The notes under the pieces: model-generated
Database searches by the model: none
What the model saw: only the letters and a program-made list of their open reading frames with translations
Told to the model about the DNA's origin: nothing
Source of the DNA: Bdellovibrionales bacterium
GTDB taxonomy: Bacteria > Bdellovibrionota > Bdellovibrionia > Bdellovibrionales > UBA1609
Assembly (NCBI GenBank): GCA_027317865.1
Contig: DAHVQG010000006.1
Span: 110,257 to 174,256 of the forward strand
Reading direction: 5' to 3'
Length of the DNA stretch: 64,000 bases
Part shown: piece after piece, positions 22,942 through 42,674 of the stretch
How positions within the stretch are numbered: position 1 is the stretch's first letter
Layout: each line of letters opens with the position of its first letter
Program-made: the position numbers and the translations under genes

Positions 22942-24428
22942 GGCGGGCACGCGAGTGCGCCGCTTGTGCAAAGAGACGCAATCGTTTGCGAGTCGGCACC
23001 AAACATGTTGGGTACGGGTTGCCCCCGCATTTGCGCGCGTACGGTTGGCGTGTTGAGTGCGCCACCGGTCGTCGCGCTCGTTGTTGTCGTTGCAGCCGTG
23101 CTGGCAAGTGATGTGCTGCCGGTTGTGGTGCTAGGCGTATTAATCAACTGATCCAAAGTCGTTGCTCCTCCCGAAGCGGTTGTAGTTCCGGCGTTGGCAA
23201 CCGGCTGGTTCTGCAGTGCCGTTGTACCCGCTTGATTGACGACTTTACCCTGCTCGAACGCTTGGCAAAGCGGATCGTTCGGATAGCTCCCGCACTGCGA
23301 CTGAAGTTCCGTGTTGGTCAGTGATGTCAAACAGTCTTGGGGATTCGGATTGCCATTACACGAAGTCGGGCGCGTGGCCAACCACTGGCATGCCGGGCTG
23401 CTCGCACTGTACGACGCACAATACGTTTGCGCAGTGCTTGCGATACAGTAACTCGCATTTGCAGTTGAGAGCGCACAGTAACTTTGTTGAAAAGTTCCGC
23501 AACCGGCACCGCCTTGATTTTCAGGTTTGCTACAATATTGCATCAGCACGGGCTGGCAAGCCGTAGTCATATAATTGTCAGACGTTTTACAGTCCGTCGT
23601 TGTACCATCGGGATTGTGGATGATCCCATTGGCGTAATCCGCCGCAATCTTCGCGCGCCGATTCGCATCGTTATGATGTTGAATGGCTTTGACGATGCCG
23701 ACTGTGGCGCCAACCGCAGCGACGCCGAGACCAACTTTGACTGCGGTCCAGCCTGTTTCGGCACTTGCAGCCTCGGTTCCGGTCACCGTTTCTAACGCCT
23801 TTGCCTCTGTTATAAAATCACGTTCAAGGACTTTGCAGTTTTGTGCAAGCATTTTGTTTGTTCCCGGCATGTTACAAGTCTTAGGATCCATACATATATC
23901 GCCGCTCGGTGGGACAAACTTTGTTGTAACAGCAGTGCTCAGGTTAGTCGCTAGGTTGTTGAAGCTCGACGAATAGTCCGCCATGTTTTTAAATGCCTCA
24001 ACATCGGAGATGGGAGTAAGCAGTGAGCCAAATTTGTTATTGGTCATTCCCTGATACTTTTGCTCGGCCGAACATAACTGCGAATTCATTATTGTGTTCA
24101 TTTGCGAAATCGTCGCATTGAGCGAATTCGCAGCCCCATCGACCATTGCTATGCATTCGTTCTGGGCTGTGACCGCCGCTGCATTCGATGGCACTGCCGC
24201 TGGTGGTGGCTTAGTAGCATTAAATGTATTTAATGCAGCCAAAGTGCCTGCGTTAGCGCCAGTGGCCTTTGCCGTATTAAAAGCAGTACAACTTAGAAAA
24301 CCGGTACCCGTCCCGGCACCCCACCCCTTCTGGCCGCTAAACAAAATTAGGCTCATGGTGAGTGGTGCAAGCGCGAGTGGCGCAAGAAATGTGCGGAATT
24401 GATCAAGATTTTCCGTAAGTTTTGCCAT
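22938..24428 (-). CDS. Cysteine-rich exported/membrane protein of unknown function
   Basis: RBS AGGGGGAG; hydrophobic N-terminus; internal Gly/Ala hydrophobic helix; Cys-repeat region; Thr-rich tail. Confidence 0.8.
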   Translation of the reverse strand: MAKLTENLDQFRTFLAPLALAPLTMSLILFSGQKGWGAGTGTGFLSCTAFNTAKATGANAGTLAALNTFNATKPPPAAVPSNAAAVTAQNECIAMVDGAANSLNATISQMNTIMNSQLCSAEQKYQGMTNNKFGSLLTPISDVEAFKNMADYSSSFNNLATNLSTAVTTKFVPPSGDICMDPKTCNMPGTNKMLAQNCKVLERDFITEAKALETVTGTEAASAETGWTAVKVGLGVAAVGATVGIVKAIQHHNDANRRAKIAADYANGIIHNPDGTTTDCKTSDNYMTTACQPVLMQYCSKPENQGGAGCGTFQQSYCALSTANASYCIASTAQTYCASYSASSPACQWLATRPTSCNGNPNPQDCLTSLTNTELQSQCGSYPNDPLCQAFEQGKVVNQAGTTALQNQPVANAGTTTASGGATTLDQLINTPSTTTGSTSLASTAATTTTSATTGGALNTPTVRAQMRGQPVPNMFGADSQTIASLCTSGALACPP

Positions 24429-24450
24429 GAACTCCCCCTGGTACAAATCT

Positions 24451-24478
24451 TTATCGGCACAAAAGACCCGCGACTTAA
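24451..24478 (-). promoter_or_regulatory. Sigma-28 (FliA)-type promoter for the Cys-rich gene
   Basis: Minus strand TTAAG-N15-GCCGATAA, 22 nt upstream of the ATG. Confidence 0.65.
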
Positions 24479-24545
24479 ATCGAGACTTTCAGCGCGCAAC
24501 GCGCGAACACGACAGTCGCGGTCAATGGCACTACTAGACTATAAG

Positions 24546-24561
24546 AGCAAATAAAATGCCA
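24546..24561 (-). promoter_or_regulatory. Sigma-54 -24/-12 promoter
   Basis: Minus strand TGGCAT-TTTAT-TTGCT (GG-N10-GC). Confidence 0.55.
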
Positions 24562-24721
24562 ATGCCGTCGACACTACGGTCAACCGCCGGAGCAAATCCG
24601 CGCGTAACCGAGCGCGCAAACAGCGACATTCTTTCAACAATCTCATTTTGATACGAAAAAAGTTTAGACGGTTGTCGCACGAGACTTTGACAAAACGGCA
24701 ATTTGAAAAGCGCGCTTAAGG

Positions 24722-24972
24722 CGACTGAGCAACCAGCCGCCCACGGGATCTCAACTCGGGTTTACCATAGTTGGATTAGCCCTATCAGCGTAAGGTGTTT
24801 CTAAAAAAATCCATTATGAACTTGAAAATTTCCAAAAGAAGCAGGGCAACTTTCAAAATACTCTCAAGTTCTTTTCTGAATTTCCGACCATACCCATAGG
24901 TGTTTGGCATATGGTCCTCCTTTCTCTCTTGCGAGTGTTAGGAGTCGAAAACCCGACTGGTCGCTCAGTCGG
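24722..24972 (-). ncRNA. Predicted structured transcript with 5'-3' long-range helix (type I toxin-like mRNA)
   Basis: 18-bp pairing of 24954-24971 with 24722-24739; SD-occluding hairpin; upstream sigma54 motif. Confidence 0.55.
24785..24910 (-). CDS. 41-aa basic/hydrophobic peptide, candidate type I toxin (not in ORF track)
   Basis: MPNTYGYGRKFRKELESILKVALLLLEIFKFIMDFFRNTLR; perfect SD AAAGGAGG (24916-24923) 5 nt before the ATG. Confidence 0.7.
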   Translation of the reverse strand: MPNTYGYGRKFRKELESILKVALLLLEIFKFIMDFFRNTLR

Positions 24973-24979
24973 GTTTTTT
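24948..24979 (+). terminator. Intrinsic terminator (possibly of an antisense RNA)
   Basis: AAAA-CCCGACTG-gtcgct-CAGTCGGG-TTTTTT; no plus-strand gene within 2 kb upstream. Confidence 0.7.
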
Positions 24980-24982
24980 GTT

Positions 24983-24998
24983 AGCAACCGGCGTTCCA
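24983..24998 (-). promoter_or_regulatory. Sigma-54 -24/-12 promoter for the peptide transcript
   Basis: Minus strand TGGAACG-CCGG-TTGCT; implies a start near 24972. Confidence 0.6.
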
Positions 24999-25148
24999 TG
25001 CCCAAATAAAATGTGACTTGAGCACAATAGAATTTCTATCCGTAACGTTCCGAAATTCGGAGCGATGAAATTGCGGTGAAAATCCGCAAATATGACAGGG
25101 GCAAAAGACGCGTAATGGCTCGACTTACTACTATAGAAATGGCATAAA

Positions 25149-25748
25149 ATGGGCATGATAAATTCAATAACTCACGATATGCAGCCCGACAAAAAAACCG
25201 TCACCACCAAAACCATAGCCACCGAAATTCTACTTTGGTTTTTGGGTATCGCATTTGTATCGATTCTAGCACAAGTCGTGATTCCGTTACCGTGGACTCC
25301 GGTACCAATCACCGGCCAAACTTTCGGCGTCGCGCTGATGGCGCTACTATTCGGACGCAATCGCGCGTTTTCTGTCATGGGCACATATCTTCTCATCGGA
25401 GCTTTAGGCGCTCCGGTTTTTTCAGCCGGAACATCGGGGCTTCTAATGGGCCCAACGGTTGGCTATTTGTTTGGCATGTCGCTCGGCGCTTTGGTCATCG
25501 GTGAACTCGCCAATCGCGGCGCATGTAAATCATGGCTGACGGCATTTTTTGCCGCCGCCTGCGGCAGTGTTATTACCTTCACTCTGGGAGTAATCGTACT
25601 GGGTCATTTTATCGGTGGTCACACGACAGGCGCGGGTAACGCGGCCGGTTTGCTTATTATGGGAGTTCTTCCATTTCTACCAGGAGATTTTTTGAAGAAC
25701 GCGCTTGCGGCCGCTATTGCCGTGCAGGCGCATAAACGCGTTCGGTGA
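25149..25748 (+). CDS. bioY: Biotin transporter BioY
   Basis: PVPITGQTFGV, GAPVFS, GPTVGYL and PFLPGDFLK motifs. Confidence 0.93.
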   Translation: MGMINSITHDMQPDKKTVTTKTIATEILLWFLGIAFVSILAQVVIPLPWTPVPITGQTFGVALMALLFGRNRAFSVMGTYLLIGALGAPVFSAGTSGLLMGPTVGYLFGMSLGALVIGELANRGACKSWLTAFFAAACGSVITFTLGVIVLGHFIGGHTTGAGNAAGLLIMGVLPFLPGDFLKNALAAAIAVQAHKRVR

Positions 25749-26226
25749 GCGCAAACACGCCGAAAGCCACTGCTACTGTTGCTACTGTTGAAACGACGAG
25801 GTTCGGAAAAAACGGCAACGCCATTGCATAACATTCCACAAGACCGGCCATTGTTTTCACGTACATCCCGCTCCAGAGCCAAACGCCAAGGTTGCTGGCG
25901 AGAAAAAATAAAATTGCCGACAATAGTCCCGAGAGTAAAAGATTGCTGACGCGACGGCGGCGAATGAGCCAACCGGCGCCAAACGCAAGCGCATAACCTA
26001 AATAGACAAGTGAAATGCCGCTGTAAAAACCAATGGCGAAATCGCTCGCCACCAAAAGTATCAACATTACAGCTAACAGTAATGGGTTACGACGGCTCAT
26101 AAAACCAACAAAAACCGCAATCCCGAGGAGGGGCGTAAAATCTACTGCGTGCGGTAAAAATCGCGAACCGACTCCCGCAACGATCATCGCAAGCACCGAA
26201 ATGAGCTCCCATTTTTTGAGTTGCAT
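25714..26226 (-). CDS. Putative ECF-type S component / DUF6580-like membrane protein
   Basis: RFLPHAVDFTP, SNLGVW and CYAMALPF motifs; multiple TM helices. Confidence 0.65.
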   Translation of the reverse strand: MQLKKWELISVLAMIVAGVGSRFLPHAVDFTPLLGIAVFVGFMSRRNPLLLAVMLILLVASDFAIGFYSGISLVYLGYALAFGAGWLIRRRRVSNLLLSGLLSAILFFLASNLGVWLWSGMYVKTMAGLVECYAMALPFFPNLVVSTVATVAVAFGVFALTERVYAPARQ

Positions 26227-42597: not shown

Positions 42598-42674
42598 GGC
42601 GGTTATAGCTCAGTTGGTAGAGCCCCGGATTGTGATTCCGGTTGTCACGGGTTCGAGTCCCGTTAACCGCCCCA
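42598..42674 (+). tRNA. tRNA-His (GTG) with G-1 and encoded CCA
   Basis: Cloverleaf: acceptor GCGGTTA/TAACCGC, anticodon loop TTGTGAT, GTTCGAGTCC T-arm, C73 discriminator. Confidence 0.97.

Follow-up and report, generated by a model that had tools for sequence, protein, structure and literature searches.

The mRNA of hok/Sok (plasmid R1 and enterobacterial chromosomes) is stable and compact, folds back from its 5′ to its 3′ end and keeps its translation signals occluded. The gene tisB is LexA-controlled and has a divergently encoded antitoxin (istR-1); neither feature was seen at the locus described here. The type I module aapA/IsoA, known from Helicobacter and Campylobacter, is reportedly treated in work by Masachis and colleagues from 2019.

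Passages of the T1TAdb paper name SD/anti-SD pairs, 5′ stem-loops, 3′ terminator stem-loops and 5′–3′ long-distance interactions as determinants of type I toxin mRNAs, and all of these fold determinants were found at the locus. Arnion et al. 2017 (PMC5416894) describe the full-length aapA1 mRNA as inert and as activated by 3′ processing. Type I toxin families are described, in the portions of the literature covered, from enterobacteria, Firmicutes and Helicobacter/Campylobacter. Bdellovibrio receives no mention in the portion of the T1TAdb text covered, and a full-text literature search for Bdellovibrio together with 'type I toxin-antitoxin' returned unrelated papers only. Eight attack-phase sRNAs of B. 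bacteriovorus are described in the covered portion of Karunker et al. 2013 (PMC3627812), which, supplements aside, reports no toxin-antitoxin locus. The locus presented here belongs to a new family of self-locking peptide mRNAs that is confined to one order and has type I toxin-like architecture, and for which an antitoxin was not found.

The peptide gene and the predicted fold of its RNA

The module lies in a spacer of the window (the whole stretch of 64,000 nucleotides that was analysed), flanked by bioY (25149–25748, plus strand; Pfam BioY) and by a Cys/Thr-rich 502-aa gene without a Pfam match (24446–22938, minus strand). This spacer contains a genuine unannotated gene encoding a 41-residue cationic peptide. 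Its elements follow one another on the minus strand in the order TGGAACGCCGGTTGCT, A6, 5′ hairpin, U4, SD hairpin, ORF and 3′ hairpin. The ORF (24910–24785, minus strand) was defined by translation and by alignment of 31 homologues; it encodes the 41-aa amphipathic peptide (net charge +4) that had been quoted in the first-pass annotation of this DNA. The SD AAGGAGG (24922–24916, minus strand) is placed 5 nt upstream of the AUG (24910–24908). As a separate observation, bioY (plus strand) and a DUF6580 gene (25714–26226, minus strand) converge, and their 3′ ends overlap by about 35 nt (25714–25748).

The 31 homologous peptides, which are 33–48 aa long, align on the pattern R-[KR]-F...L...LL.L[E/K]I... 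(an 81-aa read-through form, L037, was excluded from this alignment, A2). Residues R9, L19, L24 and L26 are invariant or nearly so, and every one of the 31 aligned ORFs starts with an AUG behind an SD. Differences per codon position among these ORFs number 9527, 6351 and 10155. Of the codons that differ, a fraction of 0.242 is synonymous in frame, versus 0.134 and 0.056 in the shifted frames, a test in which the protein-made alignment favours the true frame. Searches of Pfam and NCBIfam with three family peptides returned no family at E ≤ 10. In the protein databases (a 5.8-billion word search and a 1.84-billion HMM search), the only genuine match was the window's own peptide; a 2118-aa repeat protein was rejected as a spurious match. 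As the databases contain just this one peptide, the genes of the family evidently go unannotated.

Across the family the peptides carry net charges of +4 to +10 and have a hydrophobic moment of about 0.49 with a single polar stripe, while the 18-residue hydropathy maximum (KD18) averages about 1.97. The window peptide has its charged residues from E16 to R41 confined to about 60 degrees of one helical face. The longest uncharged run of each peptide spans just 6–13 residues (mean 8.45), too few for a classical membrane-spanning segment. The first-pass annotation had proposed a small membrane peptide; what stands of this is a predicted cationic amphipathic helix of the membrane-acting kind, but not a classical transmembrane segment. 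By these sequence-predicted properties, the peptide falls within the small (<60 aa), hydrophobic or membrane-active class expected of type I toxins in general. TisB is similar in having a short hydrophobic helix with a narrow charged face and in being expressed through a specific stress regulon instead of constitutively, whereas TisB-type peptides are not known to have a sequence relation to the locus peptide. In contrast to the membrane-spanning peptide of the Hok type, a cationic amphipathic helix is predicted here; the peptide also lacks a Hok/Gef Pfam match, no overlapping mok-like frame was noticed, and no Sok-like promoter was found at the locus.

Folding of the minus-strand RNA 24972–24700 gave −103.4 kcal/mol with a z-score of −6.16, and none of 200 shuffles was as good; the plus strand of the locus reached a z-score of −2.67, with 3 of 200 shuffles as good. 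The 5′ hairpin (24973–24952, minus strand), formed by CCCGACUG and CAGUCGGG, consists of a perfect 8-bp stem with a 6-nt loop followed by U4 (−15.7 kcal/mol, z −5.0). Next to it is the SD-sequestering hairpin CUCCU..CUC-GCAA-GAG..AGGAG (24944–24917, minus strand; −9.7 kcal/mol, z −3.1), whose outer stem pairs the anti-SD CUCCU with AGGAG and whose inner stem is capped by a GCAA loop. The AUG is held in a further hairpin (24916–24886, minus strand; −13.4 kcal/mol, z −3.0), which is part of the full-length minimum free energy (MFE) structure. The 3′ element (24742–24719, minus strand) can form a hairpin of its own with two G-U pairs (−15.6 kcal/mol). The transcript is predicted to start near 24972, and its 3′ end probably lies just past the 3′ element.

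The two ends of this RNA are complementary: 24971–24954 pairs with 24739–24722 in a helix of 18 bp, of which 16 are Watson-Crick and two are G-U pairs that are possible on the minus strand only (score 45 for the sense versus 35 for the antisense strand). The loop is also reverse-complemented between the 5′ and 3′ elements, which points to pairing and not to a direct repeat. In the MFE structure, the 5′ end and the 3′ element close a junction from which the SD hairpin, the AUG hairpin and a long ORF hairpin branch. When the 3′ strand was removed in silico, the 5′ hairpin formed instead and the SD and AUG hairpins persisted. The end-to-end pairing with its strand-specific wobbles, the alternative local hairpin of the 5′ bases and the SD locked beneath a GNRA loop, each of which had been proposed beforehand, were all recovered by these folds. 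At gathering score, the sole Rfam match in the window is a tRNA at 42599–42671; a known housekeeping RNA, which had been named as an outcome that would speak against the proposal, was not detected at the locus.

The aapA/IsoA modules resemble the locus in their peptide of about 30–40 aa, in a full-length fold that blocks translation and in the pairing of the 5′ and 3′ ends. They are likewise recognisable as families by mRNA structure and not by sequence, and are present in several chromosomal copies. In contrast, there is no similarity between the peptides, and a sigma54-type promoter and a Bdellovibrionales host are found here. Furthermore, the local SD and AUG hairpins of the locus survive removal of the 3′ strand, and an IsoA-like antisense gene is not definable. 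Since the predicted SD and AUG hairpins stay in place without the 3′ strand, opening of the SD by 3′ trimming, as in aapA1, was not reproduced. With hok/Sok the locus shares a toxin-type mRNA closed from 5′ to 3′, and an antisense RNA, should one be produced at the locus, would span the 5′ leader up to a terminator.

Distribution and common design of the family

Profiles built from four peptides, the window's own and three of congener G003 (alignment A1), and then from 31 (A2) were run in six frames over whole genomes. Of 401 genomes drawn from the whole phylum, 38 contained the peptide module (profile, E ≤ 1e-4), and all 38 belong to the order of the window. Within this order, 32 of 53 genomes of family f10, 2 of 3 of f9, the single genome of f11 and, besides the window's genome, 2 of 26 of f1 carry it; it was not found in the other sampled families (for example, 0 of 100 in f22, 0 of 57 in f25 and 0 of 34 in f18). 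The locus DNA is single-copy in the window's genome, and a search of genome contigs matched one congener locus. The congener G003 possesses three paralogs with the same layout, while 15, 9 and 4 copies were counted in three further genomes that were checked. A 22-aa match inside a long ORF (L055) was excluded from all member counts.

No conserved neighbours of the family loci were found. At three sites (L070, L071 and L072, in genomes G174 and G239), tandem arrays of 3–5 peptide modules occur, and these arrays are interleaved with genes for a STAND-type ATPase (ATPase_2/DUF234), AAA_14/DUF4143, Fic and GT4 proteins, so that these sites look like variable or defence-type islands. A congener whose BioY is 72% identical has a spacer of 68 nt in which the module is absent. 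In another congener (L002, about 1500–1560 of G006:C5), a sigma54-like motif with its hairpin occurs alone, without a peptide module and 82% identical over 49 nt. This piece lies directly after the stop codon of a converging gene whose product ends in Phe, as outer-membrane barrels do, and is either a remnant or a re-used terminator. The multi-copy, patchy and island-borne distribution is typical of toxin-antitoxin modules. One of the congener paralogs (L005, about 160–205 of G003:C112) diverges past the first 3′-UTR hairpin and has no 3′ complement, so that the copy may be in decay; it was excluded from the flank tests as it lies too close to a contig end.

A common layout was observed across the families of the order. 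TGC(A), located between −70 and −78 relative to the AUG, is followed by an A-run, a GC-rich hairpin, a U-run and then the anti-SD/SD hairpin; the spacing between GGAGGUCCGA and the AUG is nearly fixed, and the peptide has 33–48 aa. The 3′ UTR ends in a sequence complementary to the member's own 5′ element, and the sequences of these elements differ completely between members. Among the congener paralogs, the SD pairing is CCCCU/AGGGG, with both sides changed relative to CUCCU/AGGAG.

An earlier helix test with RNAduplex on long stretches was noisy and was replaced by cognate versus non-cognate scoring, in which the best ungapped helix was determined for the 5′ region of each member against the 3′ region of every member (n = 31). 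Own pairs scored 31.5 on average, compared with 21.6 for the 930 non-cognate pairs (sd 3.6, 95th percentile 28). The difference corresponds to a Mann-Whitney p of 4e-16 over the 31 members, a value that overstates independence because close paralogs are among them. By our own count, the 31-member table holds at least 15 unrelated helix sequences, and for 11 of 31 members the own 3′ partner is the single best in its row. The 5′–3′ helix scores higher on the sense than on the antisense strand in 22 members, lower in five and equal in four, which is the G-U signature described above for the window.

Full-length folds were computed for 26 of the 31 members, the remaining five (L031, L037, L040, L049 and L054) having their best helix elsewhere. 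The sense MFE is below the antisense MFE in all 26, with mean z-scores of −5.07 and −3.97, respectively. With RNA ends set from the best helix, the MFE structure of 24 of the 26 contains 11–29 pairs that join the first 35 nt to the last 50 nt (8 or more being counted), and every SD base is paired in 16 of the 23 members for which the search pattern located an SD. When 21 of these 26 RNAs were aligned with MAFFT, RNAalifold returned one 3-bp helix only; it recovers little because the variable ends are not alignable by sequence. The small GGG/CCC hairpin that it identified shows 5–6 double-sided changes. Folding and covariation across homologues had been suggested by the first-pass annotation as a check of its structured-RNA reading, and that reading gained support here, since the whole design recurs with covarying helices across the order. 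The description of a hidden, structured coding RNA with an occluded SD is therefore upheld for the window and extends to the family.

A 13-nt motif with the consensus CUCCAACGUGUUC is conserved about 20 nt past the stop codon (for example, in L034, L039, L041, L042 and L053). It is mostly situated in a predicted hairpin loop, the stem of which varies, and is followed by a small GGG-AAAA-CCC hairpin and then by a GGAGG-like box. In genome G166 the 3′-UTR motif is near-palindromic (GGAACGUUCC), and the 3′ UTR of the window has only a weak form of CUCCAACGUGUUC, at about 24770–24758.

Putative promoter and candidate antisense RNA

A sigma54-type −24/−12 motif, TGGAACGCCGGTTGCT, is present at 24998–24983 on the minus strand; it has the form GG-N10-GC, with one mismatch to the sigma54 consensus. 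Two sigma54-type motifs with at most one mismatch occur in the window, compared with 0.78 expected, and two or more were found in 19 of 100 shuffles, so that TGGAACGCCGGTTGCT taken alone is within chance in the window. The number of such sites genome-wide is 35. The motif carries weight because its spacing is conserved in the family: a GG lies exactly 12 nt upstream of the TGC anchor (N10) in 15 of 29 members, while other offsets from 5 to 24 account for 0–4 members each. The −12 element predicts a start that lies no more than 3 nt from the beginning of the 5′–3′ helix in 17 of 29 members. The sigma54-type motif is missing or mis-spaced in the 14 of the 29 that do not show the GG at this distance, and several members (L028, L030 and L034) have, as judged by eye, apparent sigma70 −10 boxes instead.

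Sigma54 and its activator ATPases are represented in the window's genome by an rpoN fragment and 15 strong Sigma54_activat genes. The rpoN gene is cut by a contig end (G000:C22:3-878), leaving N-terminal model positions 1–259 of 434, and a search of the whole assembly did not recover its DNA-binding domain. Ahead of the predicted start, at −117 and −89, are two inverted repeats, TTGCGG-N7-CCGCAA (25071–25089) and TCCGAA-T-TTCGGA (25049–25061); such positions are typical of the activator sites of sigma54 promoters. No upstream activator motif common to the family was detected, and the inverted repeats of the window are not conserved. Sigma54 control, as put forward from the motif in the first-pass annotation, is plausible: the motif is present and its spacing is kept in about half of the members, but it is at chance level when taken alone and has no conserved activator site. 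If sigma54 dependence holds, a toxin-like peptide would be tied to an activator-gated promoter, an arrangement that was considered unusual when it was first proposed. A second sigma54-type motif, TGGCATTTTATTTGCT (GG-N10-GC; 24561–24546, minus strand), was observed about 100 nt upstream of the 502-aa gene; the peptide locus and this same-strand gene may answer to one activator.

Read on the plus strand, the 5′ hairpin is followed by T6; this unit at 24947–24979 (−20.3 kcal/mol, z −4.5) resembles an intrinsic terminator, in agreement with the terminator that had been proposed there, and the arrangement of A-run, hairpin and T-run is found in most family members. A consensus terminator scan returned no sites and did not call this hairpin, presumably as the A/U extension of the stem consumes the T run in the model of the tool. 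The terminator may end a candidate antisense RNA, or may insulate the locus from outside transcription. In many members the sense start would fall within the hairpin's 5′ arm, from which we infer a sense RNA without the terminator and an antisense RNA with it.

The first-pass annotation had noted no clear antisense promoter, and the scans agree with this. A scan for sigma70-like promoters over 24300–25300 gave no sites, and summed antisense promoter scores within the ORFs equal the synonymous-codon null (272 versus 271.6, sd 3.9, P 0.48). A recurrent antisense-strand candidate, TTCAAG-N18-TAAAAT, was rejected as a by-product of Leu-Glu and Ile-Leu codons. Genome-wide, no trans-complementary site was found (best 15 nt, E 0.53). 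A search of sequencing runs for the family member L060 returned no RNA run; two listed runs each yielded a single short contig that spans part of the locus, carries no strand information and is neutral as to expression. The plus strand at 24919–24982 has a sub-threshold match to the sar RNA of phage P22 (RF00262; 24.4 bits, E 0.022, gathering 43), a likeness that arises from the predicted fold of this strand, a pair of hairpins with a terminator at the end. The score is far below gathering and there is no phage context here, so that the likeness is one of shape only.

Proposed mechanism and rival explanations

Judged by its architecture, the locus is best placed in a new type I-like family; an antitoxin was not found. 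The first-pass proposal of a new type I family is in this respect supported in part, by the SD lock, the 5′–3′ helix and the lack of Rfam, Pfam and NCBIfam matches, but not by an antisense promoter or a trans partner, neither of which was found. The fuller reading, in which the loci are unannotated, lineage-specific, self-locking mRNAs built like type I toxin messengers, is one to which we give about even chances; it includes the putative toxicity of the peptide and the translational silence of the full-length RNA, which the modelled fold suggests.

Under this toxin-type reading, the sigma54-type promoter (here and in about half of the members) would fire only once an activator had been switched on, and its product would be an RNA of about 250 nt beginning at the 5′ element. 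The first 18 nt and the 3′ end would close a compact four-branch fold with one hairpin for the SD and another for the AUG, leaving the full-length RNA stable and untranslated. Translation would await an extra event, such as processing, refolding or loss of a repressor RNA. The translated peptide would act on a membrane and would harm or arrest its producer or another cell. The bidirectional terminator overlapping the promoter would either end a cis-antisense RNA over the SD and AUG or block read-through. A bolder form, which we consider unlikely, holds that these are 'antitoxin-less' locked toxins, cationic lytic peptides whose only safeguards are the sigma54 gate and a self-tied mRNA that hides the SD and the AUG. 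In that case, a cue from the predatory cycle or from defence (prey entry, exit or phage) would both transcribe and unlock the message, and the CUCCAACGUGUUC loop would be the key-hole.

Failure to find an antisense promoter or trans partner also agrees with a small protein that is regulated but harmless and has no antitoxin, such as a membrane-associated helper specific to stress or to the life cycle, for which the fold would provide stability and tight translational control. We regard this as possible but doubtful. A short hydrophobic stretch bearing a charged stripe speaks for it, as does a sigma54 promoter, which implies signal-dependent induction, whereas type I toxins are usually constitutive; the adjacent 502-aa gene also has a sigma54-like motif of its own. 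However, copy numbers of up to 15, the tandem arrays in variable islands and a distribution that is patchy even within a genus are typical of selfish or conflict modules and would be odd in a housekeeping helper, and the double lock on the SD, the AUG and the end-to-end helix would be a heavy investment for a harmless product. It is less probable still that the RNA itself, regulatory or dual-function, is the main actor, with a secondary ORF and a 3′-UTR loop that binds an RNA or protein partner. The very low z-scores, the conserved 13-nt CUCCAACGUGUUC loop motif and the double-sided changes in the GGG/CCC hairpin suit such a role, but amino-acid conservation, the synonymous excess and the constant SD spacing of every aligned member point to the peptide; moreover, the loop motif is weak in the window, and no complementary target exists in its genome.

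In the DNA, the 5′ and 3′ elements repeat each other in inverted orientation, and one congener has the promoter-hairpin piece alone, as the terminator of a converging outer-membrane-type gene. Both facts speak for a fortuitous ORF framed by a terminator and an inverted repeat, or for a small non-autonomous mobile element with terminal inverted repeats. Yet the repeats differ from copy to copy while matching their own partner, their G-U pairs favour one strand, copies within one genome are without common ends, and the ORF, SD and peptide pattern are conserved across the families of the order. The cognate helices, the peptide conservation and the synonymous excess largely refute this explanation, and we consider it very improbable.

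In the portion of the literature covered by our searches, no earlier description was found of this peptide family, or of this lineage of predatory Bdellovibrio-like bacteria, in connection with a design of this kind. The family would add an unannotated gene class to bacteria that are studied as living antibiotics. The different covarying 5′–3′ helices, at least 15 in number, constitute a natural series for the control of translation by mRNA end-pairing.
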